62,491 nucleotides of DNA from Candidatus Omnitrophota bacterium (GCA_030650275.1 JAUSEK010000026.1:1-62491), one strand, 5' to 3'; shown: positions 2-30,269, counted from the first letter of the stretch. Notes: generated by a model not told the origin, from the sequence alone. Numbers and translations: made by a program.

Positions 2-220
2 CCGCCGCGCGTCATTGCGTATACTGTTGGTGATCAAACCACCTATGTCATGCCTGACGATGATATCCGCACGCATCTTTCCCGCCGCGGCGACACTTCC
101 GATGAAATTGAAGGATTTATAGAACGCGTGAAACAGCATGAACGCCTGCACCGTGAGCGCAACGGCAGAGGTGATGCTCTTTCCGATCCCGCCCAGGAAG
201 AACGCGCGATTTTTGCCCTG
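2..220 (+). other. Repeated about 73 aa HExxH module, copy 1 (in giant ORF)
   Basis: PRVIAYTVGD..PDDDIR..IEGFI..QHERLHRERN.RGDALSDPAQEERAI; HERLH at 137-151; aligns with 3089-3304. Confidence 0.7.
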
Positions 221-3200
221 CAAGACACAGACGCATCGTGGTGGAAGGACCCTAAGCGGACCAACGTGGTCATGAGCGTACCGATCTTCTCTTTGCGGCG
301 TGAGGTCAATGATCCGGGCATCGGGAAGTTCACGGACATAGGGCCCTATTACAGGGACCATTTGGCGCCGCTGGGCATCGATGCCGTGTTGCTTCTACCG
401 CATTACGCAACGATCGATGGAAGCCCTTACGCGGTCGCAAGTCCGTATTCTTTGAATGAGGATTTCATTGACTGGATGGAGGTTGACGAGGTTAGGGAAG
501 AAGCGGCAATGTATCCGGATGTATTGCAGGAGTTGACTGCGCCGTCCTCAGAACAGCAGGCGGTCCATCACGGTTCACTCCACCACCGGGAACGAGCCAT
601 GGCCTTGAGGGCTGCCGAGCGGTTCTGGACGCGGGAGGTCCCTGCTGATTCAACGAGGGGCAAGATGTTTGACGACTTTGTGCAACGCAACAGGCCGTGG
701 CTGGATGATTACGCGGAGTTCATGGCGGTCCATGAGATCCTGGGTGGTGAATGTTTGACATGGTCTTCCCAGGCCTTGGAACAGGCGAAGCGGGAACAAA
801 CCTATTCGGCACTTGTGCGTTTGCACATGTATGCCCAATGGGTGGCTGACGAGCAGTTGCGCGCGGCCATTGCAATGGTGCATGAGCATGGCGGGAAGGT
901 CCTGTTCGATGTCCCGATGTTCCGCGGGAAAAACAGCGTCGATGTATGGAAGCATCGTGATCACTTTAAGAAAGCGGAAAATCCTGACCGGTATCCCGGC
1001 ATTGTCCGTGGAGAACTCAATGAACGCTGGGGTGATCTCGCGTTATGGAACTGGACTAGGGCCGGGCAGGAAGGGTACCGCTTTATGCTGGACCCCGTCG
1101 CCCATTGGCTTGATATGGGATTTGATGGGGCAAGGATAGACGCCCTTCATATGGCCTATAACAATGGATACGGACAGCTTGTCAGCGGCGATGAGCCGGG
1201 TAATGCCTATGTCAGCGCGCTGGCACGCGTTTTTCAGGAACGGGAGAAATTATCTGTTGCCGAGGCCTACGAAGGAAGGTCTGGGGACATAGCTCGGCGT
1301 GGATTTATCACGGTGCTTGGCGACTGGAAGCGGTTGAGTGATCATGATGGAACCGATGTGAATCCCCGTGACCCAAGGTATGACGATACCCGGGAGACCT
1401 TTATTCAAAATTTCAACGCGTATATGAATTCAGGCAATTTTTCCGGCAAGAATGCGCGGTTCATCGCTTTAGTCCTTGGGCATCAATGGGGCGATCCGAT
1501 GCCGATCAAGCGCATCACCGGTGATAATGGCACGCGCAGGAGCATATGGCATTACCGGATCCCCTTGCAGAGCGACGCCGACTATAAAAATCGGGCCCGT
1601 TTCGACGCGGGTGATTATCTTGCCGCGATCAAAGCGATCCGTCAGGGCAATATCTGGCAGGCAGGCGATGCCATCTCACGTACCTTGTCAGCCGCCGCTG
1701 ATACCTTTGTGAAACACGTCAACGGCACCGTTGAGATCTGGGCCTCCAGCCGCGACTGGTTCCAACAGCAATGGGGCAGGGATACCTTGATCGCCTTGCC
1801 GGGGCTATTGCTGGCCATGGGACGTTTTGATGAAGCCAGAGAAAATATCCGGAGTTTTGCCCGCCTGCAGCGCAATGGGTTGGTCCCCAACAGGATCCAG
1901 GACACACAGCATCCGGAGCGCACGGAATATAACACCGTGGACGGTTCAATGTGGTTTATTCAAGCCATTCAAAGTTATGTGGAGGCAACGGGTGACTGGA
2001 ATTTTGTCAATGAAATGCTTCCCACCATGCGCGCGATCGTTGAATCCTACCAGCACGGCACGGAGTATGAACGGTTCGAGTGGCCCCACCGTATTTACCG
2101 TATTTACATGGATCCTCAGGATGGCCTGATCGTCAGCCCTGCCCAAGCCACGTGGATGGACGCTGATCCGCATCATCGGGGGCCTGTGACCCCGCGCGAC
2201 GGCAAAGCCGTTGAGATCAACGCGTTGTGGTATGCCGATCTTAAATTTTTGGCCGAGGTCGAAGAGCAGGCCGGGGAACGTTCGAGGGCTGAGGCCCATC
2301 GGGATCTCGCGGGACGCGTCAAGATTTCCTTTAACGCAAAATTTTGGAACGCGCCGGAAGGCGCGCTGTTGGATGTTATTGAAGGAACGGACCCGTACCA
2401 GGGCGCGATACGGCCCAATATGCTGATAGCGGTTAGTCGGGGAGGGGACTTAATTTCGCCCGAGCGTCAAGCCGATGTCTTTGCGTCAGCCACCAAAGAT
2501 CTTTTGACCCCGTATGGATTGCGCACGCTTTCACCCAGGGATTCCCATTACCGTGGACGCTATGAAACCTGGAGACAGCCGTATCCGCATGAAGCAGATT
2601 TCCCTAATCATAAAGATTTTGCGTATCATCAGGGTACGGTGTGGCCGTGGTTGATCGGCCCGTATGTGGACACCTTGGCGCGCGTGCGGCAGCAGCAGGG
2701 TGTCGGCGAAGATGAGATCCAGGATGAGATCCGCCGGCTGTTGAGTCCGCTGATTGAATTCTTGATGACAAGCCCAGTCGGGAACATCCCCGAGGTGTTT
2801 GACGGAGATGCTCCGCATCGGGCAGGCGGCACCAGGGCACAAGCGTGGAGCGTCTCCGAGGTCCTTCGCGTACTTACAGAATATGGTGTGCTTGGTCCCC
2901 CGCGGGATGCGGGGCTTGCCGTGCCGGGGTTAATCGCGCTCATCTCCGCCGCCGCGGTCGGTTCTTTTGCGCAGGAGATCAGGGAAACGCATCCGGCCGA
3001 ACATCGGCAATTGGTGGAATACGGAAATTTGCTGGCCCGTTTTGAGGTCCAGCTGACAGACCAAGAGTCCACGGGCCCGCCCTGGCATCCCCGATATGTG
3101 AAATATACGCTGGGGAATGAAATTTATGGTATTCCCGATGATGAAATCCGCAGACAGATGAACGTTTGGCAGATTCCCACTGAAACCATTGAATCATTTA

Positions 3201-6200
3201 TCAAATTCATCAACGAACATGAAGAATGGCACCGTCTGCGCAATATCGGAGGTATTGCCCTGTCCGATCCCGATGCGGAAGAGCATGCGATCCTCACCAT
3301 TCAGGTTAACAGTATCGTACAGAAAAGCATTTCCTCATCCGCCGTATCACCGGTGAAGGATGCGACAGCGCTAATCACGCACGCCGCGGCTCTGATGGGG
3401 AAGGTCAGGGCATTACTGGATGAGATAGAAACTTTGAGGCAATTAAACCTTACCCTTAAAGAGTGGGCTTTGATAAGAAAGACGACGATCAATGCAGACG
3501 CGCGGATATTGCCGGAAGGTCATTTGCCTGATGATGGATTATTGATGGAGCATCGATGGATACAAGCGGCGAAGGCCAGAGAACTGCCGGAGCATATCCT
3601 TAATTTTGCGGACAATCATGAAGCAGAGTTGAATTTTACCGAAACGATGTTAGGGAATCCCATCGAGTTCTTAAAACGCGCCCAAATATTGATTGCCGAA
3701 AGCCCCGTTCTCTCTGAACAGACGGTCCTCAATATCACCGCCCTTGTTGAATCCGCGAATATACGGGTGGATGGCGTTAACCAAAGAGTGGGGCCTGTCA
3801 GAAGCCGTCTTAATACTTTCCAATCTAAAATGGCGAAAGAACTGCGCAAAGCCACCATGGCGTGGGGAAGGAACGACGGGCCGGGCCTGCAAGACCCGCA
3901 CGAGATCTTCAGCTATCTTTTGATTACATTAGTGACAGCCGCGGCTGTGGGGCTTTGGCTGGCCGCGAAGTGGTTCATCCGCAACCGCGGGACGGTGTTC
4001 AGGCAGCGATCGGCCGATTTTCTTGAACTTCTCGCGGCGCGTGTTGATCCAAAACGTATTTCCCGCAGCCGTCTGCAAGAGCAGGCATGGATCGACTCGC
4101 TGACCGGCCTGCACAACCAACGTTTTTTTGAAGCGATCATGGAAAAATACGTGGCCATCGCCAAGCGGTCTAAAACTAAATTATCCATGATCATCTTTGA
4201 TGTCGATGGCCTCAAGCAAGTCAATGACAGGTACGGTCATATCGCTGGCAATCGTGTTTTACGACACATTGCCGACAAGCTCCGCGATGTGGTGCGCGAT
4301 TCAGATGAAACCGCACGATGGGGCGGGGATGAGTTCACCGTGCTTTTGCTGAACGCGGATCTGAATGGCGCGGCCATTGTGGCGGAAAAGATCCGCGCGG
4401 CCGTAGAGACGCCTATAAGCGCCATTATCGGTGCCGAGATGTTGCCTGGCCAGGAGGATAGAAAAATTGCTGTGAGCCTGGGCGTTGCCGAATATGTTCA
4501 GGGGGATACGGGCCAGTCGTTTTTAAGAAAAGCCGACAGCGCGCTCTACCAGGCAAAGAGAGCGGGCCGCAACGGCGTGGTGGTTGCCGCGACGGAAATG
4601 GATCAGCCGCCCGTGCCATTTGTGCGCCACATCGTGCTGCAGGGAAGGGACTATACGATGATGTACGCGGTCGCCAACCCCCAGACGGCGGCAGCAGTGG
4701 CCAATCTTGTGCTGACCAGCGAAGCACGCATTGCCAAGGCGGGCGGGTTGAACGAATGGGAAGGGCATCTCATCGCCAGGGGTCGGCGCAACCCCGCGTG
4801 GTTCATCCGCTATGTCCAGCAGGTGTTGAAGGAAAACCCCTACTCCTTGGTGGCGAGAGATGCGCAGGAAAAAATTCAGGGCGTCGTCTTCGTTTCCCTG
4901 GTTGACGCAAAGAGCGCGGAGGAACTGCCGGCCCGGCACACCCTCATGCGTTATGCGCATCAGCGGCAGGGCGTGCGGTCTGCCATGGTGGACTTCTGGG
5001 TCACCGGCGCCGTCTCCGGGATGGCCGATGAGTTACTGCTTTCAACCAAGCACTTGGCACAGCATCTCAACCGGATGCAGCCGGAGACCTGCCGCATCGA
5101 ACGGCTCTTCGCGTACAGCACACCGCGTAGCTACAAGGAAGCGGATGATGTGTCGCGCGCGGTGATCGGCCCGCTGTCCATTGAGTTCTACCTTGCGTCT
5201 GGCAATGACCCGGTGTTGCATGGATACCACGTTCGCCTTGGCGGTACGATCGTTCGCATCATCTCCAAGGCATGGTCCTCCCGGCATAGCAATCTGGGCT
5301 ATGCCGTCGTTGTGCAGCACCCACTGATCGAGCCGTCCAAGCCGTTTGATCCAACCACCCTTAGCAGCTGGATATTTCCGACATTACTCGCGGCCGGCCT
5401 TTTGGCCAGAGTTCTGGGTTTGGACATGGACCATGCCGGGCAGCAGGCGGGATTGTTCTACGGGTGGCTGGTCAATTCTCTGGCGGGGGCAGTGATAGTT
5501 GTCTGGCAATGGCTGCGCACTCACGGTATCAGGCTTTTGCCGGATGGCCGTTATGTGTACATCGCCCGGCTTGTCCGCCGCCTAGCCAGGGAGGACAGCC
5601 CGTCGCTCGTCAGCATGGACCGCGTCATGGATGTTTTGGTCCAGGACCATGAACTGATGGCGCTCATCAGTGAAAACCGCCTGCTGGACCCGATGGCGCG
5701 ACTCATTGAAAGGTTCACCGAAGGCGCCCATATTTTCCGGTTCAATAAAAGCCAGCAGGAAGCGTTCGTCAAAATGTTTGAAGACAAGTATACACGCACA
5801 GTCAGCTTTGACCGCGACGGGTTATGGGTGGTGGAATTGTACACGCGTCCCGTTACGTGGAAGCAGAAATGGCAGGCATTTGATGAATCACCAGAGCCGA
5901 TAGGCACGTTCCGTTTTTATTATCACCAAAACGGAAAAGGGCCATCATTGCAGATCGGGTATCCTGAAATACACTCTGACTATCGCGGCCGGCATTTGTA
6001 CTCGGAAACCGTACGCGCCATCGTGGATGTGAACAATATTTCTTACGGTACGCGCGTCTGGCACGTGGTGGATGAGATACGCACGCTAGAAGCGCTTTAC
6101 GGGAAGATCGTTGGCGGGCAGGACGAGGAGGCGTATCCGGACAGACCGGAAGCGGACCGCAAGATCCTGTTGCGCGCAGACATCGTTCACGAATTAAACA

Positions 6201-9200
6201 GAAGGTTCGGGGGAGTATGGAGGGACGAGGAGTTCCTTAAGGCGACGGTTTTAGGAAGGCCCCTGGCAGGGCTGGACCGGTTGGCCTTAAAAGCCACGGA
6301 AGGCGGCCTTTGGATGACCGGGATCAATGGTGAACGCGCGCCCGCGTGGGAAGGGCCCCAGGCGCCATCCTGGCTGGAGGATTTCTGGCAAGACCATCCT
6401 GTGATCGCCAACCCCGCGGAACAGGAACGCCTCAAGCAGTGGGAAACAGGATTTGTTGAGCGTCTGCATGACCGGTTCCTGTTGCCGCTGGAAGACATCA
6501 GGACATTTCTTGAAGATGTCCGGCAGGCCATGACCGTTGGCCAGCCCGACACGCGTATGGATACGCGCGGCGTCGACATTTTTCTGGCGCAGCAGGGGCC
6601 GTCGGCGTTGACGCGCGTGGATGCCGCGTATCTCCGGAAACGCTTCGAAGAATTCGTCCCATTGTACAATAACATGGCGGCGGCGCTCAACGGGCACGCG
6701 CCGGTTTTCGGCAGGGCACGTTTATTGGAGGAGGTCTTTTTCACCCACCTTTTCTTGGGCCGGCGTTTTGACATGAGCGCGGCCCAGGCCCATTGGGCGG
6801 TCAATTTGTATCGCCAAAATAATATACCGCAGGGGATAATTCTTGGGTGGCTGGCGCGGCATTCCCTCAAAACGGCCATGAATGAAGAACAGGCCTGGCT
6901 GGCTTTTGAGCGCGATCCCAACCTGATGCTGCGCCTGGCAGGCCTGTTGACCGAAGACGCGCACAGCGGTCTGCATCTTGTGTTTTATCGCCTGATTAAA
7001 GCTAAAGCATTGAGCAATGTCCAGCATCTGGCTGTCCTGTCAGCCGACGATGAGGACGGCAGGCGGGAGGCATTCAGCCGCGGCCTTTATAAAGTTATCA
7101 GAGCGGCCATAGGTTATTCGTATCTGGCGGGTCATCGAATACAGAAACGGATGTTGTCGCCGAAGGAACGGGAATCATTAAGGCAGATATATGCCGCGTT
7201 GCTGAATTTTATCCCCTTGGCTGTCAAGGTTGTGCCGCTGCGCGTGTCACGTCCATCGAAACACCGGCGGAGCTTTCCTATTACCCCTGGATCAAAGGCG
7301 AATGATGAAAAGAAAAAGGCGCGCCGCGTGGATGAGCGGTTGCGGCAAACGCGTGGATTGAATTTTAATGACCTGCGTAATTTTACCCCACAAGACGTGG
7401 ACAAACACATCGACGGCGGGCGCAACGGTCCGCGCCTGGGAGACCCGCACGAGGCATTCAGTTTCATTTTGTACATATTAGTGACAGCCGCGGCCGCTGC
7501 GGTCATGTGGTTTGTCCGTTCCGTGCGCGCGGAATTGGCCGGAGACCTTAAACAATTGGAAAGATCCAAACGCGACAGCGGAAAGATCAGAATGACGTTT
7601 TGGGTGAGCACCCTTGCCGTCGGCGGAGCGGAAAAGGTTGTTTTGGACTTGATGAATAATATAGATACCCGCAGATTTGATATTATCACGGAGACCCGTG
7701 ACAGCAAAGAAAGATATGATGTCGAGATCACAGGTGCCCAGCGGCGGGGTATGTATTTCATCATCAAACCGCTTCTATATTCAAAATTCAGACAGTATTT
7801 ATCAAATAGATCGGGGATCTTAAGATTGTTAAGGCTTATGTTGCTTCTCGCCCGGTCCCTAAGGCAGGCGCCCATCGAATATTTTATCCACAAAAATACT
7901 CGCCCGCGTATTTATCATATTCACGAGTATGGTATACGGCAATCCGGCAAAAAGGCCATTGCTAAATTGGCGGGCGTTCCCGTGGTCATGACCACTTATC
8001 ATACTTTTCCAAAGTCAAATGGGCCGATCCGTTCTCTGGATGACATGATCACGTGGGCCAATCATTTTATAACCAGGATAAGTTTTCATTATATCGATGA
8101 TGTTATTGTGGCGCTGACGGAGGCTGAAAAACAGGAACATATACGCGTGAACCGTGTGCCGGCGGAAAAAATCGTTGTGATACCTAACGGTATTGATCAG
8201 CGGCTCTTTATGGAGCAGGCGGACGTTGAAAAGGTTTTGGATGTCAGAAGAAAACTTCATTTGCCGGAGGATGCTTTTGTGGTTGGCGCCGTGGGCCGGC
8301 TGTCTTTGGAAAAAGGTCATCGTCATCTGGTGGAAGCCGCACGTATTGTTTTGGAAGAAATTCCGCAGGCGTACTTCCTGATCATCGGCGAAGGCACAGA
8401 ACGCGGTAACTTGACCCGACAGATCGAGGCGGCTGGTTTGAGGGGAAGGGTCGTCATGCCCGGTGTACAGACCCATGATTCTTTACCCCTGTATCTGGCG
8501 GCCATGGATGTATTTACAATGCCGTCGCTGATCGAAGGTCAGCCATTGGCCAAGATCGAGGCCATGGCTTCCGGCAAAGCGGTGATTGCCAGCAAGGTAG
8601 GTGGAATGCCCGAAACATTAGATGGCGCAGGAATACTGGTCCCGCCCGCTGACCCGCAGACCCTGGCCCGTGAGATCATCCGTTTGGCCAAAGATCCGGA
8701 ATTGCGCGCGAGGTTGGGCCGGGCCGCGCGTGAACGCGCACAGTTGTTCTCCGTGGAGAAGATGGTGGAAGATTATGCCCGGCTTTATCAACGGCTGGCG
8801 GCAAACCGCGGGATAAGTCTTCAGCCTGCTTCCGCGTCGATCGACAGCGGGCGCAACGGCATGCCGAAACACGAGGAACGGCATATTCCTTACGGAATAC
8901 ATTCAAGGGGGTGGAGAAATAATAACGACGTGGGTCATAACTTATCGGGCGAGTGGTATCGTGCGCCGCATGGCCGGCGCGGTGTCGTTGAAATTTCAAT
9001 CCCCGTTATGGGTAAGTTCTGGACCAGCATGTGGGCAAGGGGAGATTGGACCGCCTTTGGCAGGGGTTATTTTGGAGAGATGCTCACCTTTTTGGAAAAC
9101 TTTATTGAGGATGTCCGCCGCCAAAATCCGGCCGCCCGACTTGTGGATTTCGGGACTGGAAATTTGGAGGTGCCACGCATTATACGGGACGCGCTTACCG

Positions 9201-12200
9201 ATTTCACCGTCTATGCATTCGATGTGGCGGACCCAAGTTGGTTGTATCGGCCGGACGCCGATCATTTCTTCAAGACGGATATCGAGGCCGTTGGTTTACT
9301 GGATGGTCAAGTTCATGCCGTAACAGCCGTGTATGTTCTGGAATATGCCCGACGGATGGACAATGTACTTCGGGAGATCCATAGAGTGCTCAAACCCGGC
9401 GGCCTGGCCGCGATCATCGCCATTCATCCGAGATCAAAACTTGTTGAATTTGCCGCGCAAAACGTCAATAAGGGGGAAACTTGGCTGAAAGAGATGAAGC
9501 CGGGACTGCGGGGACCGGATCATCTTGAAATACACAAAGCCGGCATTCTCGCAAGACTGAACATCATCAAATGGCGCCTCGAAAGAGCGGCAGAGATCCC
9601 GGATACAGAAGAAGGAATGAACGCATGGCTGCGGCGGCATGGGTTCGTTGATATTAAACTCGAACATCTCCATGATCAGGACAGCTTATTGGCATGGGGT
9701 GTGCGTGTGCGCAAGCCCGTTTCGAACCAGTCGCCCGCCGCGCCAAGCGCCTCTGCCAATCTCAGCGGGCTGGATCTGCACAGTCTGCATGATATCACCC
9801 ACGTCTTCTGGCTGGCGTTGGGGTTTGTCATTGCGATCGTGGCCGCAGCGGTAAAGAGGATCAGAAAAGGACGCCAAGTCCATTATTATCCCACCGTGGA
9901 TTCATGGCAGGAGCATGAACGCGCTGTGAACTTTCATTCCCATGCCGCCCATAAGACCACGCGGCGCGCGTTAAGGATCATGGACAGTGTCTTTGCGGCC
10001 TTTTTGGCCATTGGCATAATTGATGTGTTTCTCGGGGGTCTCGGAATAGCCCCTTTGCTGCGTTTGGTATTTTCGTATCTGTTTGCCAATATTCTGGTGG
10101 CGGTCCTTGTCTGGCTCCATGAATTTGTCCATGTGCTTTTCGTCCCGAAAGAGGATAGGACGCTCAAGAACTTCTGGGGGAATATGAGCGGCAGCAATTG
10201 GTTGCACCTGGCCTTCCGCAGGCCTTATACGGTCCCGGGTCGTTTACCCTATGTGCAGATCATGAGCGACCTTTCCGATGCGCGCCGGCGGTGGGTCAAT
10301 TATTCGGCGCTTATCTTTACGTTTTTGAGTTCATCGGCGATCGTTTTTGTCTCCTGGATTCTTTTTACCAGGGGAACATGGCCGATGCCTGCGGGCTTGG
10401 CCGCGATAGTGGCTTTTAGATCCGCGTGGGCCGGTGATTTCCGTAACCCCAGCAAGCATACGTTCCACTGGGGCGCGTCCGACCCCGGGCCGACCGGTCC
10501 CGCCGATGAAGATATTTTTGGAGATCTGGCACATACTCTGGAGAAATATTTTAACAGTATGGACTTTCCGGACAGCATGGCTGAAGATGCGCGCCATGAA
10601 TTTTTCGGACGGTTGTTGCAGAACATTGTGGAAGATCGTCGGCTGAAGCACGGCATACTGATGTCGTGGGTCTTGTGGTCGCTGCGTTCTTATGAACATG
10701 GCGTGAATCCTCTGGAACGTGTTTTTGACATCCTCGGGACTCCTATGCCGCCGCAAAAAATGATCAGATCGGCGATCCGGGAATTTGAACGGGTGTTGGA
10801 CAGGGCAACCCACGCGGTCTCTATGCCGGCGCGCGACTATCAAATGGTTGGTGATAGATCAGCCCGTTCGGCTGGCCGGGCGGTCGTCAAAAAGCAGACG
10901 CCAAAGCAGGCCCCTGGCCACAGAGGTCCGACGGAAGGCAATATGTCCGGGCTGCTGCCATTGGCAGCGGGAGTTGTTGGGGTAGGGATGACAGTGGTCA
11001 TCGCCGGATGGATCCTGGCCTCGATATACAAGCCCCAGGTATTGAAATTTGTCGCCGGACGTGCCCCGCCCGGACCTGTCCGCCGCATTGTCTTGTCCGT
11101 ATTGGGTCGTCTTCTGCCAGAACAATTTATTCCTATTCAGAATCATCTGCGTCGCCTCGTCAAAGGTGATTTTCTTCTTTTGAAATGGCTTCGCCGCAGT
11201 ACACCCATATTGCTTGATTTGAATACGACGCCGCAGACCGTTGGACCGTCGCCGGATCACGGCACAACAGATCCTGGCATAACGGTCATTCCAACAGATG
11301 CCGGCAATCCCAATGCCATGGGAAGTTATGAGGTTCTTTACGGTACACGATTCCTGGGGACGCATGAACATGTTGCGCTCCCGGACAAACGCATTGTTTT
11401 ATATCAATATGACGAATTACCCAAAGAATTAAGAAACGTTGCCATTGGTCACAGGCGCCAAGAGTTTGTTCGCTGGACAGAGAATAAAATGAGCCAAGCG
11501 GTAGGATACGCACATTTTACGACCCGTAGCGCTGGATTTGCTTTGGACAGTGTTGATTTGGCTGGCCGCAGGGTTTTGGATGTTGGGATGGGAGAAGGCA
11601 CGCTGGCCATTTTGGCCGCCAAGAAGGGGGCCAAGAGCGTCGTGGGAGTGGATGTGTATCCACGCATCATTGATGTTGCGCAAAAGAACGCCGAACTCAA
11701 CCGGGTTACGTCCCAAGTTCGCTTCTACATCCAGGATGCCAAACAATCAATTCCCGGGGAAGACGGGTCTTTTGATGTGATTATCATGAACGTGCCCCGG
11801 TATCAATTCTACGAGTTGGTGGGGGCCCTGATGTTGCGGTATCCCATGGTCCAGACGTTCATCCTGGGCGGCAGTGCGCAAAGCATGGACCGCAGCCGTG
11901 TCCTTGATATATCTGACAAAGTTGTCAGACTCTTTCGCCGGCGCGGGTTTGTTTTTACGGCGAAGTTCGTTGACACTATTAACCGTTATTATGACGGGAG
12001 GATGTGGAATACCTATATCATCCATTCTCCATCGGTTGAAGCGCCCAATGCCTTGCGGCAGTATATGGGCAGCATGAAGACCGAATTCACGACGGTAGTG
12101 ATAGTGCTGTCGATGTTCGCATCAGCGCCCGGTCTGCCCGCGGGTGTTGCGGCCGCTGCTGTGCTGGCGGGCCTCGGGTTGTTGGTGCTGGGCATGACCG

Positions 12201-15200
12201 TAGTCACGGGCCGCGGCAAAAAAGGTCCGAGGGGTCTTTCGTCCAAAAAAGTAAAACTCAAAGCCGTCGCAACGAAGCAACGATATTATCTGATGCGATT
12301 TATCCTGACAACGGTGGACAAGGGTGCCCTTGACCGGCTGATCACGCATTTCTCAGCCGTCCAAAAAAGACACGTGTCCGACGTTGGGACGGCCATTAGG
12401 CAGATCGTGGAGAAGACAAGAAGCCAATGGAAACCGGACGTCCCCGTCCCCCCAGAGTGGGGTGATATTGGGCGCAAATTTTTTGATTGGGCAAAGGACC
12501 AGGAATTCGTGACTGTCCGCACACAACAGATCCGAGAGCGAGCGCAGGAGCTGCTTTCGGGACGTATGCGTGAGTTGTTTGAGGTCCGTGCGGGCCTGGT
12601 TTCGTGGCGCAATTTGGGTAAAATGAACTATGACCCGAATTTTTTGACCAGAGCACTGGAGATCATCCGCACCAACCTACCGCTCTTGGATGACGGCCTC
12701 ATTCCGTCTCCGGGAATGGCCCATGACGACTTGCGCGGAACCAAAGCTATGATCATGGTGACCGGCCGGCGGGTCAGTTGGGAGGGTTCGTTGATCACGG
12801 CGGGAATTTTCGGGCTGATCGGTTTGGCGGCAATTGGGGGAAGTTTATCGATGCAAGGGATCGGGCTGGTCGCCATATCAGCGGCGGGCGTATATGTTAT
12901 TCAAGGGTTGGTCATTATGTTCCTGCCGTTGGCAGTGTCAAGGGCTGGCTCATTATGGGCAAGGACCAGATGGGGCGTCCCCGGTCCGCCTGATTATCCG
13001 CTCATCAAGCCACTGCGCGATATGAGATATAACTACTACACGCCCTTCCTTGAAGTAACAGACAGACATCAAATCATCAATGCCCGTCTCCAGGCCGGAT
13101 TCTTATTCTTACCCCCGTTGCTCCAATGGATCTTTTACCTGCCGATCGGGTTGCTGCGTGCTGTTCATGAACGTCCGGCCCATTGCACGCCGCTGGCACG
13201 CCTGCACGAAGCCCACAATGAACTCATCGCTTATCCGTTGGAAATACTGTTCGTCTTTACGGGCGCCATCGGCTATGCCTTTGCCGCGACGCCGGAGGCC
13301 CTGCTGGCGGGAATATTGATTGGGCTGTCGATACAAATCATTTTGAGTTGGTGGGGGCATGGCCGGGAACAGGCCTTCCGTGAGGCAGTGCCGGACATCA
13401 TCTTGAAAGCAGACAGACCCGGGCTTATTTCCCGCCGCGTTGTCTTGCGGACCTTGGTCGCGGGCATAGCAGGGACGGCTGTGATCTGGAAGATGGGAGA
13501 TCTGCAGGATCCATTAGAAGAACAAACGGCCAAGCAGAGGGGCTATGAAGATTGGTTTGCGGACAGGGACGAGTGGCTGGCCGAGGGGGACATGGTCAAC
13601 GCCGCGTTGGCCAACCGGCGCGGTGAATTGCTTCGGGCGGCACAGATGGTGCCTGTGATGGCCCAAATGTCTCCGCGGGTTTTTTATACGTGGATAGCGA
13701 GTGTCGAGTCACTGGAGTTTTTCCGGGGACGAGCAGAACCAGACGGCAAAATAGCGCGCGGCGAGCTTCAGGCGTGGATTGAGGGATACAGGAACTTAAG
13801 CCGGCAGCCCAACACGCCAGCGCCTGATATGAAAACCGTCGAGGAGGTCCAGCAACAACTCCGCTTGCTTGCCGCACAGGTTGCCATAAATCCGCGCGAC
13901 CGCCGCAACCCCATTCCTGACCGCCGGCCGGAAGCAAGGTCTGTGCTGGACAGGAGGACCATGTTTGCCGTTATGTTAGGTTTGCCCAAACTGCCGCCGG
14001 CGCCCGCCCGCTTGATCCTGGATGTGGGGGCTGGTGATGGCCGCACCACACAAGCCTTGGCACTAAGCAACCCGAATGCGCGGATCATCATGATAGACCC
14101 CAGCACCAACTCGTTTGAGGCCGCCAAACAGCGTTTGAAAAGTTTCCCGAATGTCGAATTCGTCGGCAGGCATGTTGAACAATGGGACTCATCAGGCCTT
14201 GCAGGTTCGGCAGACCACATTTATTTTCTCTTTCCATTTTTTCTGTACAGGCCATATAAGCATCCTATTTCAGCAGATACCGCCCGGCGTATCGCTGAAA
14301 AAATTTTTGGATTGTTAATGCCTGGATCAGGCGAGTTTGTTATGGTGACGGAATTTCCGGAAATCATAAGTGTGTTCATAAAAGCGTTCAGAGCCGCCCA
14401 ACTGCAAGTTGACAGCGAGAAAGTTCCGACGGGGGACTTGGTGCAACATGTTCCTGTTGCGATACATTCCGACATTTATGCCTACATCTCCAAAGCGACG
14501 GAGGCACGTTTCAAGACCGTGTTGATCATCCACGCTCGCAAACCGGTCGAGGGCATATCCTCGCCCGCCAAACGTGGCCTTTCGAAACTCACCGTCTTTC
14601 TGCTGGCCGCCGGCGCAGGGTTGACGCAGCTGTTTGTTGCCGCGCCGTGGATAGGGCGCGTTCATGCCGTTGGGTTTGCAATGGTCCTGCTGGGTTTTGG
14701 CGTGGCGATGCTGGGCGGCAATCTCGCTAAACTTACGCGGGTGCTGAAAAGATGGCGCGAGGTTTCACGTTTTACCGCGCAGGAACGACAGGACTTTACC
14801 TTTTTCACAAGAGAAACCATTGATACTTTAGCGGCAGGTCGGCCCCAGAAAGAGCGCGACCGGTTTTTCAAACGGATCGCGTTGAAGCCGTTAACAAAGA
14901 TCCATATTCTTTTGCGTTATGACAGTCATCTTTGGCGTGACCTATTTTTTGTGGCGATCATATCGGTGTTAGGGGCATTTGAAGGATGGATTTTGGGACG
15001 CGCACTATTACATTTTGGCAATACCGGCGTCGCGATCATAACCTGGTTGGGGGGTATCGTATTTGGTACGTTCGCGCTTGTGAGGTCCCGGTTACCGGCG
15101 AGATCGTCGGCCAACATCATTGCATGCATAATACCGGGTGGGACGACCATTTTTGTGAATCGCCGGCTCACAGCAGGACGGCGTGACCGATTTGTTGCAG

Positions 15201-18200
15201 CGGTGCCTCATGAGACGGCACATCTCCTTCATGAGTACGAGTTAGCGGCCAAGGATACGTCGTCTGTCATTCAAGGTGTTGTAGAATTGCTCTGGGGGGA
15301 GAAGACCGGCCGAGACACAGTTATTGGTGATCCCGGATGGTACGACGAAGGCCGGCGTCTTGCAACGATCCAGGACCCGGCACAAAGGGAGCGTGAGCTC
15401 CTTCAGTTCAGCCGCCGCGAAGCGCACGCAGACGATTGGGCTCAATCGGTGGTCAGCGGCCCGGGCCATCCAGAGCCGGAATCCATGCGTCCCTATGGCG
15501 TGGCGTTGGCATCGTATATTTATGAGACCATTGGGAGGCTTCGGCTTGAAGGGGCGCCTTTCCCCGAGCGGTTCGGCGACATCAATCTTTATCTGCGTGC
15601 TAACCTCAATTTAGAAACACGGGACATTGCCTCGGTGGAGCAAATTGCCGAGGCCATAGCCCGGACTTCAACGCTCTCTCCGGCAACGGTCGATACGGTC
15701 CTTGATAACTTTACGCTTTCTCCGGAAATCCGGCAAGGGGTGGCACAACTCGCGTTGAAGGGGGGGATCGTCTCACATCTGCGGCACTTCGAGGTGCGCC
15801 GTAGCAGATCAGCGCCGCCCGCCGTCGTGAGACGATCTCCCGAAGATCCAGGGCACGAGCGCCACAGGAGTTGGGGGAGACAACCCCGACCAAGATGGCT
15901 GGGTGGCGATGAGGATGTGGAGTCGGATCCGCTGAATGGTGACTGGGCCATCCCGGCTCTCTTGCGCCACCATCCCAAGAAACCGATTGTGCCGTCCGCG
16001 AGCGACGCGAGTCCCGAGCCAAGTCGAAGGGCCGCCGCGCCGTCTGTTTTACCTGCCTCTGATGTACTGGTCGGTCTAAGGACCGCCATGCTGCGACCCG
16101 GCGACCGGGTGCTGCATGTCGGATCCGGACGATCCAGACTGCCATTTCTCGACGCGTCATTAGGGGCCTCCGACGTCTTTGTCACCGATGCGCGGCCGGG
16201 CAGTCTGCAGGTTGTTGCGCACCCCGGCGTCACATTCATCAGCCGGCCGGTGGACGTAACTCGTCTTAACGAGGACTTGCGGCAGGAGCGGTTTGATCAG
16301 ATCACGATGTGGAACGTGTTATCCGAGGCGTATTTCCAAGGAGACCGGGCCCATGCGCTCATGGAACTCATCCGGGCATTGCGTCCACACGGGCGTATCT
16401 GGGTCACAGATGACCATGTCCGTCTAAGCAATGGGGAAGCGCGTTATGTTCACGACTTGCTGCCGGAGGTTGCTGATGCGATGGGTTATCGTATCAAAGT
16501 TCTGGCCGGTCCGAAAGATCTTCCCGGCGCCTACGCGGATGTGCTGGCGTATGAATTATGGCCTGATCATCGCATAGACAAGCTCAAAGGGCTTTCGAAA
16601 ACCAGCGTCTTTCTGCTGGCTGCCGGCGCTGGGTTGACGCAGCTGTTTGTTGCCGCGCCATGGATAGGGCGGGTCCATGACGCCGGGCTTGCGATGGTCC
16701 TGTTGGGTTTTGGCGCTGCGGCGCTGGGGGCCGGTCTGGCCGTGTCTATTAAAGAAAAATTGGCAATGGCCCGGGAACATCTGCCGTGGACCACCGGGGC
16801 AGTGGCCGGGGCGCTGGTCATCATACCTTTTCTGAGATGGAACTTTTCCGATCCCGATAATCTTTTGGTCGGGAATTTGATGGTTTGGGCGCAGGTCCTG
16901 TTGACCGGATTTTTGAGTGGATTTGGGGTGGAGGCGCGTGGGACGTTTGTTAATTTTATGACCATGATCTTTTTGCCTTTCGTAGAGCTGACCTTGGCGC
17001 GGTTGTGGTTAAGGGTGGCGGTCAATAATGTCAGGGCCACGTTCTTCGGCGGCCTTTTCTTTGGCCTGTCCGCTGCATTTTTTGGCTATGCGATCGGACA
17101 TCCGCTTTTGGACCTGGCGCGCATGGCGTTGGGATCTCCGCCCCAGGACAGCATTTCCAATATCATTACATTTTGGATACGAGGCGGCCAGTTCCTTAAG
17201 GTTGCGCCTACGGTGCCGCAATTTTTGGAGGTCGTTGCGGCAGTGTTTGGCGTGTGGTATTTGAGCGAACGGTCAGCCAGGTGGATCGATGGTAAGATTG
17301 AACCCCGTTTAAGACGGCGCGTTGAGCGTAGGCGTCTTGCTGTAGAGAAAGCGGTGAGAATCGCAGACCAGGCCGCGCGTCGCGCCGAGCGCCAGGCGGA
17401 ACGGGCCGTCGAGTCTATCCGAAAGGAAAAACCTAAAAAGAAAATAGTCGCGCCGGCGGTCACCAAAACGGCCGCACCGGCTTCACAGGAGATTATCAAA
17501 CCAGCCAAAGCGGCAGCGCCGACGATCGCAACACCTATTGAAACAGCCGAACCCGCCTCTGTCGAGGAACCATTTGTTCTTTCCGCACTTTCCATCAGCG
17601 ATCTTGAATCACCCGATACTGCGGAACCATTTATTCTTACCTCACTGGACATTATTGAGCCCGAATTTGATTTTGAATTCAATGTTGCGCTAGGATCGGC
17701 CGAAGAACCTTATACCGGTCAATCCAATCTTGATTTTGAAACGCCGATGCCGGAATCGGCACCGGCGCCGTCAGCCGCGGATGAATCTGTAGCGGAAGAC
17801 CTCGACTCCTGGTTGGGGGACGATGAGTTGGGACGTGAGATCGCCGCGCGTTTAGGTCAGATGCCCGTCGAAGAAGTTGAAAGCCTTCTTGATCTGGTTT
17901 GGTCCGATCCCTCTCTTTCATATGCCGAAAAACGGCAAATGCTGGCGGATCTTCTACCGAAAGAGAATATTTTGATAGAACAGACCTTAAGGTTTGATCT
18001 TGGTCGTGATCCCTTGGGCTTAAGTTTGATCGTATGGCTCGAAACCATGACGGTCCCGGAGATCCAACAACGTTTTAAGGATATCCATGGGCGCAAGGCC
18101 CTGATTAAAAAAGTACTTCAGAGATCAATGAATCCCCAGATGGCAGAACTGATCGCGGATGCTGCCAGACGTAGCGGCCAGCGGCCGCTGATTGTTATTG

Positions 18201-21200
18201 AGCGCGTCGCCGACATATTGGGAAAAGGGGCGGCCAAGCGCAGTGTTCAAGCCGTAGTGGAGCAGATACGCTCCCCATCTTCCGACGATGACCTCATTCG
18301 GTTCGCTTCGAAACTCAGCGCCCTCCTGCTGGCCGCCGGCGTGAGCCTGTTCGGCCTCGGCCTCAACATCCCTGTTCACGTCCAGGAATGGTTCCACACC
18401 GCCGGGCTTGCAATGGTCCTGCTGGGTTTTGGCGTGGCGGTGCTGGGCATGGCCGTCGCGCAGTCCCCATCTACGGTGATGCGCATCCGCGGCGAGCTGG
18501 CTAAGCGGCAAGCCCAACATCCGGAGGAACTGATCAACGTGACGGCCATTGCTAAAGTGCTCCATCTTAGTCGTCAGGCAATTTATGACGCCTTCGAACG
18601 TGATCCCGCACTGGAGAAAGAATTCCGGCGTGCCCACCACGCCTCTGCGCAAGCCCAGATACGCCGCCGTCCAACCCGGTCTCGGGTTGGCTCTTCGGAC
18701 GCGCGGTTGCGGGCGTCCAACCGAAACCTGCTGCAGGCGCAACGAGCGCACAGTCGGTCCATGGGCGCACGGCTGCGGCCTGCTGTCGGGAAAATTGTTG
18801 CGGCGTATCAGGAGCGGCTCCTGACCCTGGATTGCCGATTAGACGCCACCACGGCCGCACTCGAGCATGGCCCCCCCGCGCTCGCCGCCATCCAGTCGGA
18901 GGTCGTGGTGGACTGGACGTTCTCTCGCGATCGCCGGCGCGATGATGCCGTGCGGCAATTCCTGGCCTCCAAAGGCGTTGTCACAGGCGGCGATTTGCTC
19001 GCCGTATATGGAAAACTGCGTCGTTACTACGCTGCGGATAGGCGGTTTCGGCTGATCCGGGCGGCCCTGCGGGAACGGATCGGCCCCGCGTTTCTGGATG
19101 ATTGGACGTTTAAATCAAATTTACAGTTCGATGCGAGGATCAAGAAGGTGCTCTTTACCGCCCAACCGCCCATCTTCATCATGCAGCAGTTGCTGGCGTG
19201 TACGGAGGCTGATCTCCAGGATCTGTCTCTGGGTCCCACGATCATCCGGGCGATCCAAGCCGCGCTGCGCCGGCACGGGCGAACGTTGCACCAGAACGCC
19301 GCCGCACCGTCCGGCGGTACGGCCCTGCTTGCCGCGGCAGACAATTCTCAGCGGATAGTGTGCCGCATTGGGATCATCGGAGGCACCGGTTGGGTGGGAT
19401 CACAATTCACCCGGTGGCTGTTGCGAAAAAGCAACAGGACCATTGATGTGCTGGTGCGGCCCGGCAGCCCAAGGATCGCTTCGATCCCTAATTCACCAGC
19501 CGTCCATCTCAGGACAGCGGCTTTGCTGGACCTTGATGAGATGGGATCGTGGGTCAGAGACAATGACGTCCTTTTCGATTTTGCGGCTTGGTCCAATCTT
19601 CCGCCGGAACCGTCCGATCAGGAGAAATGGCAGCTAAACGTCCTTGCGCACGCCTATCGCGTCGCCTTAGCCGGGCGTCACGGCACGCACATCATCTTTC
19701 CTTCCTCATCCACGGTGTACCGTCTGCATGCCGGCGATGCGGATCCACCGCTCAAAGAGGACGATCTCCGGCCGGATCCCGTTGTTGATCAGTTCATTCA
19801 GGTTACCGTCGAGCAATTCAGCGCTTATGCCACGGGGGTTTTGGGTGGTGCGCCGCAGCGTGACGAGGAGTTCATCAAGGACTTTTTGTATGACCATCCG
19901 GTGCCTGCGAATGTCAGCTTTTATCCTTTAAGCAAACTGATCGCAGAGCGGCTGGTCTTGGGCCATGAGCATGCGTTGGTCTTGAGATTCCCCGAGGCCT
20001 ATGGACCGGGGGAAACCGCGCACAAAGCCATCCCCAATATGTTGCGGGCGATCGTGGAAGGCGCAATGCAACTGGGGGTGCGGGACGACCAGAAGCAGTT
20101 TATATTTATTGAAGATGTTTTCAGGGTGTTGGAAGTAACCATGGATGCGCGCGTGGACCCGGCCAGGCGCGTCATGAATGTGCCCGGTCCCCAAGTCCTG
20201 GATACGTTTGCGGATGTGATCCCGGAGATCCGGCGTATCACCGGATCCACGATCCAATTTAACAGGGTCACCGGTTTGCAGAATCCTGCCATGGACGGCT
20301 CGAGACTGCAAGAACAACTGGGTGTAGTGCCAGGTGTTTTGTTGGAGGAGGGTTTAAGCCACACCTATGCCTGGTGGCAGTCTCGATCATCCCATGCCGC
20401 GCCCACCGACGCCGCGCCAGCCGTCAGTAAGATGGGCCTTTCGAAACTCAGCGTCTTGCTGGCAGCTGTGGGCGTGGGCCTGTTCGGCCTGGGCCTCAAC
20501 ATCCCTGTTCACGTCCAGGCATGGTTCCACACCGCCGGGCTTGTAATGATCCTGCTGGGGGCGGGCGTGGCGGTGCTGGGCATGGCCGGTTATAAGGGCA
20601 AGTCGTTCAAACGGTGGAAGAGAGAAAAAGATTTAAGGTATAAACACGGCGGCGCGGCTTTCCGGGCGTTGGTACCGACGGGCATGGCATTGCACTTTAC
20701 GGGGCTGGTCAGCGGGATCCGGCATCTTCGGATGTCGGCGCTGCCGCATATGGGATGGTGGCCGGCGCTGGGAATGACGACTGGGATCCTGCTGGCTTCA
20801 TTAGGATGGTCCATAGCCGCTTCGTGGGTCGTCGAAGCAGACCAGCACAGACAACAGCAGAAGCAATCCAGGCTCAGATTTTTTGGAGGGGTAGAACATT
20901 TACCGTACATGACGCCAATTGCGATAGGCACACTGATGGTAGTTGTCTTTCAGTACATGGCCGTGTCAATTTTAGTAGAACGGGGCGTTTCGGTTGTTTT
21001 GAGTACTGCGGAGGTCATGGGCAGTATTGTTGGTTTGTGGGGTATTTACAAAACTGCGCGGACCAGATCCGTTCTGGCCATGTTCATATTAGCCGGCCTT
21101 TACGCGTGGTGGTTCGGTGTTCCGTTCTCGGGGTTATTGGCGAGGTTGGGATGGGTCGGTATCGTCGCGGTCTTGGCCGGCGCGGCAGTGCCGCCGGACC

Positions 21201-24200
21201 GGAAACTTATTGAAAGCCTGACCGGTCAGGGGAATACGCTTAGGCGCAGCGCCCTCAAGTTCAAGGCAGACCGTCGATTTAAGGATGTCAGGACGGCGTC
21301 GCAACAGGCCGAGGGGATGTTCCTGGAAGCTGTGCGTCTTGGCCAGGATGACCCCAGCACCCTTATGGCCCGTCATGCCCTCGGTCAGCTTTATTATGAC
21401 CGAGGGGCTTATTATCGGGGCATTGAAGTTTTGGAAGAAGCCCTGGACCTGATCGGCCGGTTTCGAGACGCGAATCCACAGGCAAGGCGATTGATGAAAT
21501 TTTTAGCCGGCCAGGAATCTCTTATGCTGGTGACTCTCGCCGGCATGTTGCTGAAAAACTGGCGCCTCCAGGAGGCTTTTAAGATCCTTACTGCCGGTGA
21601 TCCGGCCGTTCTCAAACCGCAGTTCATGGAAAGTCCGGGCGCCCATCGCATCCTTGCGGATGCCTTGATCCAGGCCATGCGTCCTGCCGAGGCCATCAAC
21701 GTCCTGACCACCAACGGCATTCACCTGAAACCTCTGCTGGCGCGGTACCCCGGATTCTCCCAGCGGCTTCTTGATACTGCCCTGTCCCGGATCAGAGACC
21801 AAGGGACGGTCAAGCCCGTTGACGGGGACATTCAATTCTGTCCTCTTGAGATCATAGACATGGCCAGAGCGCTTGCTCAAAAGAATAACCTTAACGTGGG
21901 CGATCTCATCCGGGAAGGGATCAAGGGTCTTCGTGAGGCGGACCGCACATACGATCCTAAAAAAGGAGATTCCTTTAAGACGTTTGCGTTAAAAAGGGTC
22001 CGGGGTGCCATGAAGGATTTCATCCGTCGCGATCGTGCCGCGCGTCAGTATGGCGGCGGATCCGTGCCGGATCGCGCCTCCGGCGGGAAATGGCCCGGAA
22101 AATGGCAGAGGTCCTATGACCGGATCCAGGAGCAGGTGACCCGCTGGACGGGCAATAAGGCATTGGGCTGGTGGGCGGGACAGGCGTTGGCGCCCGGGTT
22201 CACGGAGTCCGTTGTTTTTGTCGGCGGCACAAGCCTGTTATTGAGTTTGGGGGCAAATGCCCTGAAAAGTTGGGCTTTTGGTCTGCCGCTGGCCATGGCC
22301 CCGCCGGTGTTGCTCACCCTTGTCTTTACTCCGTTCCTTCTTTTTGCGTGGCGCCGTTTCCACGGACGGCAGAATCTCTTCGCGGCAGACCTTGCCCTCA
22401 TCAATCATCTTTCGTTATATAGAGCCGGCTTGACCGTTTTTATTTTGGTCCTTGCACATGCGGGCAGCATGCTTGTCATCGGTTCATATCTGACGGCCCT
22501 TTGGATCTCGCATACACCGGTTAATGCCAGGCATAATCCTTTCCGCGGTGACCACGGCCATGATTTACACAATTTTCCGGTTGCACGGTGGCTGCGCGAG
22601 AGGCGGGGGCGCATGACATTGCGGGACAATGAGGGCAGGGTATTTGAGTTTCGTTATTCGGGGCCGTTCCCTGTCTTTTTTGACCACCAGCATTTGCTGA
22701 CCATCTTCCATGACGGCCGCCAGATCGGTTACGCGCATTTTATGGTCAAAGGCGGTCAGGCGCGGATGTCCACTACGTTCGGGGGACGTCCGGCCATCAT
22801 GGTGGATAAAGCCCATCGCCACCGGGGCCTCGGCAGGTCTTTGATCATGTTGTTGTCGCAGTTGGCGGGGGCGTCCGGAGCGAAACGTGTTCTGGCAAAG
22901 GATGTGCTGCCTGAAGAGACGGGTTTTTATGAAGCCCTCGGTTTTCAGAGGGTTCCCAGCGGCCATGCGTGGCGTTTATCATATGAGCTGTTGTCGTTTG
23001 AAACTTTTTCCATGAGTAAAATTTTATCGCCCGTCGCTGCACCGCTTGTGGCGGACAAGAGCGATCCACAGGGAACAACTTTTTTTGCCCCTGTATCGGT
23101 TTTGGCCCTGACTGCGCGGTCCTGGGCGCCACTTTTAGGATTGTCACCGGAGGCCGCGCTTCTTATGCAAGCGATCGGATTGGCGATAGGGCTGGTAGCG
23201 ATGGCGATATGGTTTTATGTCCGGGGAAGATCAGTGCTTGGCCTTGGAGTCATGCCTGTTGCCGTTAATGGCAATGGCACCGATGACCAGAGCAAAGCAA
23301 ATCATAAAAAGATAGGACCATTCAAGACCGATCATAAGACACCCCTTTCATTATTCAAAAGCATTATAGCAGCGGCAAATAGGATTAAAAAGCAAAACCA
23401 TCCCATTATAAATATTTCCCAAAAGATCGTGCGGGCGACCACCTGGCCGAAAACAAGCGTCACGGCCGCCAAATTGCCAAGGTTGAAGAACGCTTTGCTT
23501 AATTCTTTGCGTTGGGTGGGATTGAATCTGATGCTGAACAACATGACAGGCCTCCTGCGGATTATTTTGGGGAGATGGATTGGTACAACAAGCGTGGGGA
23601 ACGCTTGGATGAAACGATTCAATGTAACATCCGGATATGGTTTTGTCAATATTGCGGCCTCGGCCGTTGTGATCACCTTTGGCCTGTTCGCCGCTGCGTC
23701 TGCCCTGACCCCGAGTGCCAGTGTGGTTCATGACATCGGCTGGGGCGGTGTTCTGGCGGCTGGGATCGCTGCGGTGACCATCGCAGCAACGGTCAATGGT
23801 TGGCTAAGGCGGTCACCCGACAGGATGGTCAAGGTCGCGGGACCTCCACAGATCGCCTGGTCGAGACATATGGATATCGGACAGATGCAGCGGACCGTTT
23901 TCCGTGGTCCATCCGGGTCCCTTGAGCGTTTGCTTGGCGAGGTCCTGGCTGTTCACAAGCCGGTCGTTGATGCCGGATCCGGCGAGAGCGGTGCGCTGGA
24001 GGGTGTTTCTCAAGCAAGCGCCGGGGCCGTCGTGTTTCACAACCCGTCCCCTGATGAGCCGACATTGAAGGATTTCGCAAGGGCATTGTACGTGCTTGAG
24101 CCGGGCGGATGGTTCGTTGTTCACCTCAGCGGTGGTTTTTTTGACCAAGAGAAGAGATTGGTCCAGATGTTGTATCAATTCAGCCGCGCGCGGGCGGGTT

Positions 24201-26054: not shown

Positions 26055-26104
26055 GCCCGGAATAGGACATTTCTACTTTGCCTTTACAGTGAAGCCTCTG
26101 TACC

Positions 26105-26133
26105 TTGACACTCGCCCGTCGGGGTGTTATACT
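26105..26133 (+). promoter_or_regulatory. Sigma-70 promoter
   Basis: TTGACA-17-TGn-TATACT, 12 nt before ATG 26146. Confidence 0.8.
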
Positions 26134-26145
26134 TTGGCCACAACT

Positions 26146-27821: not shown

Positions 27822-27827
27822 ATTATA

Positions 27828-28091: not shown

Positions 28092-28104
28092 TTGTATCTC
28101 CTAA

Positions 28105-28133
28105 AGTATATATGTATATACAAAAGATGTCAA
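28105..28133 (-). promoter_or_regulatory. brnTA promoter with palindromic GTATATAC operator-like site in the spacer
   Basis: TTGACA-17-TATACT on the minus strand. Confidence 0.75.
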
Positions 28134-28135
28134 CA

Positions 28136-29788: not shown

Positions 29789-29796
29789 TACTTTTT

Positions 29797-30258: not shown

Positions 30259-30269
30259 GGAGATCTTTT

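Follow-up and report, generated by a model that had tools for sequence, protein, structure and literature searches.

The incorporation of new domains into giant bacterial genes has been named an open question (10.1101/2023.11.21.568195), and it is raised in concrete form by a contig of the uncultivated Candidatus Omnitrophota bacterium (GCA_030650275.1 JAUSEK010000026.1:1-62491). This stretch of 62,491 nt, hereafter the window, is contig C24 of a 26-contig, 1.63-Mb genome (G000), and it opens inside a giant open reading frame (ORF) in which enzyme modules of many kinds follow one another. Between these modules lie four copies of a short segment, here called the cassette, that probably encodes a pair of transmembrane (TM) helices. 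What are these cassettes, and how have four of them come to be alike between modules that are not? We read them, with a probability that we put at roughly 0.6, as membrane staples that were copied within the gene and then partly homogenised by short-tract gene conversion.

Four copies of one cassette between unrelated modules

A preliminary description of the window had proposed four copies with common ends and two alternative middles, each set between unrelated domains. Our analysis confirmed this arrangement and found the copies in frame, with the following boundaries, where the E values are those of a hidden Markov model (HMM) of the cassette:

2..26041, + strand: C-terminal part of the giant ORF, 8,679 codons, open at the contig start and probably extending upstream through contigs C20 and C13
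14576..14728, + strand: cassette c1, type I middle (aa 4859-4909, GLSKLTVFLLAAGAGLTQLFVAAPWIGRVHAVGFAMVLLGFGVAMLG; HMM E 6e-23), beginning 12 residues past the end of a methyltransferase module
16589..16741, + strand: cassette c2, type I middle (aa 5530-5580; HMM E 1e-22), preceded by a weak class-I methyltransferase-like domain
18302..18460, + strand: cassette c3, type II middle, LFGLGLNIPVHVQEWFH (aa 6101-6153; HMM E 2e-30)
20435..20593, + strand: cassette c4, type II middle (aa 6812-6864; HMM E 4e-29), preceded by an NAD-epimerase domain
14676..14707, + strand: word of 32 nt that recurs exactly at 18408-18439, within helix 2 of both c1 and c3; no exact match between copies is longer

The copies are 153-159 nt long (51-53 codons), all direct and within one ORF, and their start-to-start spacings (2013, 1713 and 2133 nt) are each divisible by 3. 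When the giant protein was compared with itself in overlapping 200-aa chunks, the copies found one another with blastp E values of 4e-6 to 3e-23; scored against the cassettes, true copies reach at least 272 and any other TM segment of the protein at most 46. The likeness extends to the DNA. Identical residues are encoded by the same codon in 18-35 of 25-40 cases, versus 8-14 expected from the codon usage of the gene (P <= 7e-5 in each of the six pairs), an excess that takes the resemblance beyond what composition or amino-acid need would produce. The longest exact matches are 32 nt (c1/c3), 29 nt (c1/c2) and 28 nt (c3/c4), and the GC content of the cassettes is 63-67% versus 55% for the gene. 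This likeness ends abruptly, in that identity over the first 30 nt on either side falls to 10-50%, mostly 20-33%, in all pairs. The cassettes are thus sharp-edged, DNA-level paralogues.

The modules around them are a different matter, showing no detectable similarity to one another:

14015..14242, + strand: class-I methyltransferase domain (Methyltransf_25, E 1.5e-13) in the module that precedes c1
14729..16588, + strand: module between c1 and c2, with a 2-TM hairpin, an orphan region and, at its end, a weak likeness to methyltransferases (E 2e-3)
16742..18301, + strand: module between c2 and c3, with a multi-TM region, a basic coiled stretch and an acidic repeat; no Pfam match
18461..20434, + strand: module between c3 and c4, without a TM segment; a weak HTH-like match (HTH_23, E 0.039, short of the Pfam threshold) and, at 19373-20182, an NAD-dependent epimerase/dehydratase (E 3.5e-13)
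20594..23056, + strand: module or modules after c4, with a multi-TM region, weak TPR-like matches, none of which reaches its Pfam threshold, Sigma70_r2, further TM segments and GNAT

No homologue of the c1-c2 module was found in 5.8 billion proteins, and the regions downstream of c1 and c4 have no similarity to each other. The nearest approach to kinship concerns the methyltransferase domains before c1 and c2, which share only the superfamily motif I (29% over 91 aa around it, E 0.012), whereas the cassettes that follow them are 84% identical in nucleotides. We therefore rejected a tandem duplication of methyltransferase plus hairpin as the origin of c1 and c2. More generally, because the flanking modules are unrelated, any ancestor that they had in common must be much older than the cassettes, and a simple tandem duplication of connector plus module is thereby excluded.

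A diverged fifth copy, suspected near 12070-12200, was not borne out. The segment in question (12086..12202, + strand) is a 2-TM hairpin in an analogous position, with 73% identity over 41 nt. Its score of 46 lies within the background set by unrelated TM segments (44, 43 and 40), from which it is not separable, and the cassette HMM is silent there at E <= 10.

A block mosaic and gene conversion as its possible source

The resemblance among the four copies is distributed in blocks. In the first 39 nt, identity is 67-87% across all pairs, and in the last 48 nt it is 73-90%, again in all pairs (c1/c3 43/48, c1/c2 38/48). The middle, in contrast, separates the copies into two types, with 47/51 positions identical for c1/c2 and 54/57 for c3/c4, versus 38-43% across types. 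Specifically, 27 sites split c1 and c2 from c3 and c4, all of them in the middle or the tail, and none falls in 90 of the 159 aligned columns (P ~1.6e-10); over the whole alignment, 2 sites unite c1 with c3 and 1 unites c1 with c4. Within a type, middles are 92-95% identical and ends 78-83% (pooled Fisher p = 0.003), and the ends are no more alike within types (83% and 78%) than between them (75-85%). The block mosaic is significant, although one argument first advanced for it is weak. The preliminary description had taken the 3' end of c1 as recombinant, matching c3 better than c2, and its counts can be reproduced (38/39 versus 32/39, together with 68/71 for c3/c4). However, the 3' block contains no parsimony-informative site, and c1 appears nearer to c3 there because c2 simply carries more private changes.

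From this pattern we infer gene conversion as the homogenising process. The cassettes would have arisen through copying of DNA inside the gene, rather than by convergence, and would later have exchanged sequence in short tracts that made them partly uniform. As the cassette is the sole homologous DNA, its flanks sharing none, conversion would be confined to it, which would account for the sharp edges; between types, it could not cross the dissimilar middle, which would explain why the ends are common to all four copies and the middles only to neighbouring ones. Gene conversion restricted to short homologous stretches or parts of modules has been documented in the mega-genes of assembly-line polyketide synthases (PKS) (PMC8256042).

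Two small observations concern the outermost copies. c1 and c4 begin with the same 16 nt, without a difference, a small mosaic element that links them, and the basic tails that follow these two copies (KLTRVLKRWRE, 14729-14760, and KGKSFKRWKRE, 20594-20630) share the motif K-R-W-[RK]-R-E.

A probable membrane hairpin

Each copy probably encodes a two-helix hairpin with basic flanks. Hydropathy delimits two hydrophobic segments of 18-19 residues per copy, laid out as a first helix, an invariant Pro, a short loop with an invariant Trp and His, and a Gly/Ala-rich second helix, for which alignment of the four copies gives the pattern LLG.G.A.LG with invariant Gly. Net charge, counted by hand from the sequences, ranges from -1 to +2 on the upstream side and from +1 to +7 on the downstream side, and the loop has between -1 and +1. 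With basic flanks and a nearly neutral loop, the positive-inside rule would place both ends in the cytoplasm, where the neighbouring modules would find the cofactors that they use, namely S-adenosylmethionine (SAM), nicotinamide adenine dinucleotide (NAD) and acetyl-coenzyme A (acetyl-CoA), all of them cytoplasmic. Judged by eye, c1, c2 and c4 start 8-20 residues past the end of a soluble module, and the next module then begins. Coding in another frame or on the opposite strand was considered and rejected, since sense frames +1 and +2 and two antisense frames contain stops, and the antisense frame that does stay open would encode a hydrophilic peptide with nothing remarkable about it.

A two-helix hairpin is the one kind of membrane segment that can be inserted between two cytoplasmic domains with their topology unchanged. 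Because it can be so added, we infer for the cassette the role of a topology-neutral staple, at which the chain would dip into the inner membrane and return, and a tethering function, in which the successive enzyme modules of one giant polypeptide would be held side by side at the membrane. Even if the cassettes are merely staples kept alike by conversion, such connectors still mark module boundaries, and these must be known before the proteins can be cut into units whose structures are predicted, which are expressed, or in which processing sites are sought.

A private cassette and a hypervariable gene

Within its own 1.63-Mb genome, searched in six frames at E <= 10, the cassette HMM has exactly 4 matches, none of them on the other strand. 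The cassette was absent from 400 searched genomes of the phylum and from 40 searched relatives, a congener included, and it was found neither in 1.84 billion (1.84e9) representative proteins, in long proteins or in proteins of single-module size, nor in metagenome and genome contig collections, in searches that may have passed over records of the window's own genome. Judging from these searches, the cassette is private to its lineage. Its confinement to one gene in all collections searched makes a mobile element, or a widespread "standard" connector, unlikely.

The congener, a metagenome-assembled genome of the same genus (G423:C34, L132/L133, 12227-13424 region), is colinear with positions 26101-40035 of the window at 86-90% nucleotide identity, and this 14-kb colinear stretch starts 60 nt past the stop codon of the giant gene. 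On the other side of that boundary little is held in common. The syntenic giant ORF of the congener, at least 4,075 codons long and cut at a contig end, shares with that of the window only three units of another connector family, D (31-35% aa identity); it carries PEP-utilizers_C and HEAT in place of the methyltransferase, epimerase, sigma and GNAT modules, and no cassette was found in it. Given that the flanks are 86-90% identical but the modules differ, module content must turn over. As a locus, the giant gene is thus hypervariable and sharply bounded at its 3' end, and a connector family is what persists between the congeners. Comparing module order between strains had been suggested as a check on shuffling at the cassettes, and its outcome is divided. 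Content is not invariant, in line with the proposal, but no breakpoint can be placed at a cassette, since the congener lacks the whole cassette-bearing region and no relative carries the cassette.

Weighing the explanations

The likeliest alternative is the one that the preliminary description favoured, namely that the gene grows and remodels by recombination at the cassettes, which would act as portable in-frame homology where modules are gained, lost, duplicated or swapped. Much about the locus suits this idea. The copies are true paralogues with unrelated flanks, and as all have the same orientation and reading frame, at distances divisible by three, any crossover between two of them would give an in-frame, topology-preserving product. 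The longest stretches that they share without mismatch, 28-32 nt, come close to the shortest that RecA-type exchange requires. The turnover of modules in the congener, with only the D units recognisably common, is the pattern that the idea predicts, and in the same gene a 283-nt identical pair of connectors of a further family, J, brackets a 4.4-kb block of modules. Other results speak against it. The contigs of the single run, which hide minority variants, contain no recombinant junction, and unitig depth is even; chunked self-comparison revealed no duplicated module between cassettes, though unequal crossing-over would produce duplicates; no donor bearing the cassette occurs elsewhere in the genome or in the searched databases, so that no source of modules is visible; and no homology breakpoint falls at a cassette. 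We accordingly regard recombination at the cassettes as unlikely to be the explanation. If connectors do prove to be exchange points, they would amount to a grammar of giant-gene evolution.

The remaining explanations fare worse against the same data. Were the cassettes left over from gene fusion, a family of once-separate paralogous genes would each have had one as its N-terminal membrane anchor, and the giant ORF would have formed as the intervening stops were lost. The Met in front of c4 (KMGLSKL) would fit, as would the GH77 + GDE_C module, which is the first module of the window contig and a free-standing protein of 1,374-1,384 aa in more distant relatives (L025 9394-13518, G413; L026 8948-13102, G167). 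However, c4 is the sole copy of the four with such a Met, no free-standing gene with the hairpin exists in the genome or the searched databases, and the cassettes, at 75-95% DNA identity beside modules that cannot be aligned, are far younger than any common origin of those modules; we consider this history quite improbable. An in-frame miniature mobile element similar to the Rickettsia palindromic elements, with a hairpin tolerated because topology is unchanged, would account for the uniform length of 153-159 nt, the sharp edges, the DNA-level identity and the raised GC content. It is nonetheless very improbable, as the cassettes have no terminal inverted repeats, target duplications or consistent palindrome, fold no better than shuffled sequence (z -0.5 to +0.3), and are all confined to a single gene, where they have the same orientation and frame; neither the rest of the 1.63 Mb nor any collection searched contains another. 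As for chance likeness of hydrophobic segments, or an artefact of assembly (chimeric or collapsed repeats), TM segments are indeed compositionally similar, and the k=31 graph branches at the 32-nt word common to c1 and c3. Composition does not account for the codon-identity excess, however, or for the gap between the scores of true copies and of other TM segments. In the one public run with the sequence, Logan unitigs contain c2 and c4 in full, and c1 and c3 as far as the shared word, at even depth (15, 15.9 and 16.6) and with 0 mismatches, being interrupted at k=31 only at that word, and the contigs of the genome overlap by 141 nt, implying a k-mer of ~141, far longer than the 32-nt repeat, which would therefore not mislead the assembly. 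Chance or artefact is hardly credible.

Several points also weigh against our preferred reading of the cassettes as copied and partly converted staples. Topology and membrane insertion are predicted solely from hydropathy and charge. The AlphaFold2 model built on the four-sequence alignment (helix 16-34, a break at the Pro, helix 36-76) is of low confidence (pLDDT, the predicted local distance difference test, of 64), does not resolve the turn and is too uncertain to speak to helix packing. The case for conversion is made from four short sequences with no outgroup or orthologues for timing; block heterogeneity is significant and the edges are sharp, but duplication in two steps, under uneven constraint, could produce some of it. 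The copies differ with little excess at third codon positions (for c3 and c4, 7, 8 and 7 differences by codon position, and 4 synonymous versus 10 non-synonymous codon changes), which means that purifying selection on the peptide is weak or that the copies are very young. Finally, a 17,411-codon part of the gene, on contig C13, has repeated soluble domains and no repeated TM connector, hence connectors are not a universal building rule.

Comparison with known systems

Giant, membrane-anchored multi-enzyme proteins have been described for the Omnitrophota (10.1101/2023.11.21.568195; 10.64898/2026.06.07.730766), and the size of the ORF, its string of enzymes, its TM segments and the identity of a relative place the gene studied here among them. 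Placement in the phylum follows from one neighbouring protein, 92% identical to that of 'Candidatus Omnitrophota bacterium NC_groundwater_838', and from the 86-90% identity over 14 kb of flanking DNA. Like the proteins reported by West-Roberts et al., it combines an ORF of tens of thousands of codons with an N-terminal Peptidase_C39, unrelated enzymes and dozens of TM helices. It is unlike the Archaeovorin subtype (West-Roberts et al. 2023), with which it has only the N-terminal Peptidase_C39 in common; Pfam scans of the whole composite ORF, described below, found none of the HEAT repeats and SecA_DEAD or preprotein-binding domains of that subtype. A word search of the Omnitrophota giant-gene literature (10.1101/2023.11.21.568195; 10.64898/2026.06.07.730766) found no description of repeated TM connectors conserved at the DNA level. 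In kind, then, the cassettes are intragenic repeats, probably under concerted evolution, in a known class of giant genes, and the particular object is a private, repeated two-helix connector between unrelated modules.

The pattern is similar to that of gene conversion in PKS genes, including the repeats called GRINS (PMC8256042), where short stretches of DNA are near-identical in a long modular gene, their neighbours are not, and mosaic blocks result. PKS modules are homologous to one another, however, whereas here the flanks are unrelated and only the connector is shared. GRINS are defined by intense GC skew and AT skew (PMC8256042). The GC skew of the cassettes, -0.03 to 0.20, lies between the 16th and 82nd percentiles of the gene and sets them apart from GRINS; their AT skew is extreme (-0.36 to -0.49), with T over A as expected for codons of hydrophobic residues.

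Among other systems, polyproteins of the flavivirus type have helical hairpins that punctuate one long chain and tether successive units to the membrane, much as is proposed here. Those hairpins carry sites for signal peptidase or a viral protease and place units on alternating sides, while the two flanks of a cassette appear to be on the same side and there is no small-x-small site before the loop: alignment shows V-A-A-P-W in type I, with Pro at +1, and N-I-P-V-H-V-Q in type II, neither of which matches the AXA-like site, free of Pro at +1, of a signal-peptidase junction. Rickettsia palindromic elements, in-frame mobile insertions of ~100-150 nt whose added peptide is tolerated by the host protein, are similar in lying within coding sequence; the cassettes differ from them in lacking palindromic structure and in standing all in one gene and one orientation. 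Shufflon-type sites are different again, since their repeats are inverted around invertible segments and the four cassettes are all direct.

A giant gene that probably spans three contigs

The 8,679-aa part in the window contains, by Pfam, GH77, GDE_C, GGDEF, GT4, at least 3 class-I methyltransferases, an NAD-epimerase, a lone Sigma70_r2 and GNAT, that is, enzyme domains of many different kinds with none dominant by copy number. Between them, a hydropathy scan (19-residue windows with a Kyte-Doolittle mean >=1.6, not a trained predictor) counts 47 TM-like windows. The first ~350-400 residues of the stand-alone GH77 + GDE_C proteins of relatives are homologous to many loci of the window genome (C15, C23, C21 and C8).

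This part probably belongs to a still longer gene. Contigs C13 (reverse complement), C20 and C24 are joined in frame by a 283-nt Logan unitig, an exact repeat whose depth of 31.3 is double the local 16-17.7. It consists of the last 141 nt of C20, a G, and the first 141 nt common to C20 and the window, and these 141 nt also close C13 when it is read in reverse complement (C13 1-141 reverse complement; L027 1-141 and 4545-4685; window 1-141). The only path that uses each contig once runs C13 (reverse complement), J, C20, J, C24, and remains in frame. What look like two "giant genes" in this genome, of 17,411 and 8,679 codons, are thus probably parts of one ORF that also includes the 1,561 codons of C20 and totals 27,653 codons (17,411 + 1 + 1,561 + 1 + 8,679), the assembly having broken at the contig ends because the two youngest J copies are identical over the 283-nt repeat. 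Alternatively, C20 could be a separate circle of 4,686 nt or a variable tandem unit. The composite gene opens with a Peptidase_C39 domain (E 6e-7; C13, L134 aa 210-287), and its further domains include a GT48 1,3-beta-glucan synthase (E 5e-44; L136 aa 3011-3497 on C13) and a GT2 (E 3e-24; L027 aa 1142-1342 on C20); more than 10,000 codons of C13 are without a Pfam match at E <= 1e-5.

Other connector families

The cassettes, as family C, are one of four connector families in this gene, the others being J, B and D, each restricted to its own zone:

2..225, + strand: 3' half of a copy of connector family J, whose members are soluble, ~120 aa long and marked by an HExxH motif; the first 141 nt here lie within the 283-nt exact double-depth repeat
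2867-3316, + strand: further copy of connector family J, from self-comparison
3866..3987, + strand: connector family B, single TM, GP.LGDPHE.F motif
7418-7524, + strand: second copy of connector family B; the third is on C20 (aa 826-867), with 67-79% nucleotide identity among copies
23057..26022, + strand: zone of connector family D, three units at 23057-23655, 24296-24750 and 25748-26022

Family J has four copies at module boundaries, with sequence at 2-225 and 2867-3316 of the window, at the start and end of C20 and at aa 16104-16241 of the C13 ORF. Its HExxH motif is conserved (HERLH, HEEWH, HEGSH) and is followed by ...SDP..EE.AI; from this motif, the piece could be a candidate mini-metallopeptidase or a processing site. 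Family B follows the pattern G-P-x-L-G-D-P-H-E-x-F, a TM segment and W-F-V/I-R, and its three copies have in common an exact 20-nt word, ACATTAGTGACAGCCGCGGC.

That connectors recur, both here and in another giant gene of 85,816 codons, invites a wider proposal. Omnitrophota giant genes may be in-frame cassette arrays, in which a few kinds of lineage-private connector (TM hairpins, single TM anchors and small soluble pieces) join enzyme modules that are unrelated. Conversion within a gene would keep the connector DNA near-identical, and through this homology modules could in turn be excised, inserted and exchanged in frame. We offer this as a tentative and, on present evidence, doubtful generalisation. 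If true, it would explain how two congeners with ~88% identical flanks differ in giant-gene content, and it would supply a mechanism to build and remodel genes of 10^4-10^5 codons with frame and membrane topology kept. Either way, the locus offers a concrete handle on giant-gene assembly, with its sharp-edged connectors in four families, a syntenic relative of different content and analogous families in the 85,816-codon gene. The latter belongs to a genome of another family in the same order (G420), where it occupies C1:160040-417487 on the minus strand (loci L029-L048), and its short TM connectors form at least two families. The motif LAPLEILTTFLLPSTFLTGL marks the first, with four copies at aa 68747, 71297, 73284 and 76427, and the three of these compared as DNA share a 30-nt core at 97-100% identity between flanks that are mostly 23-40% identical. 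The other, LLSV.P...W..AILGAGA, has three copies, at aa 80891, 81516 and 81742.

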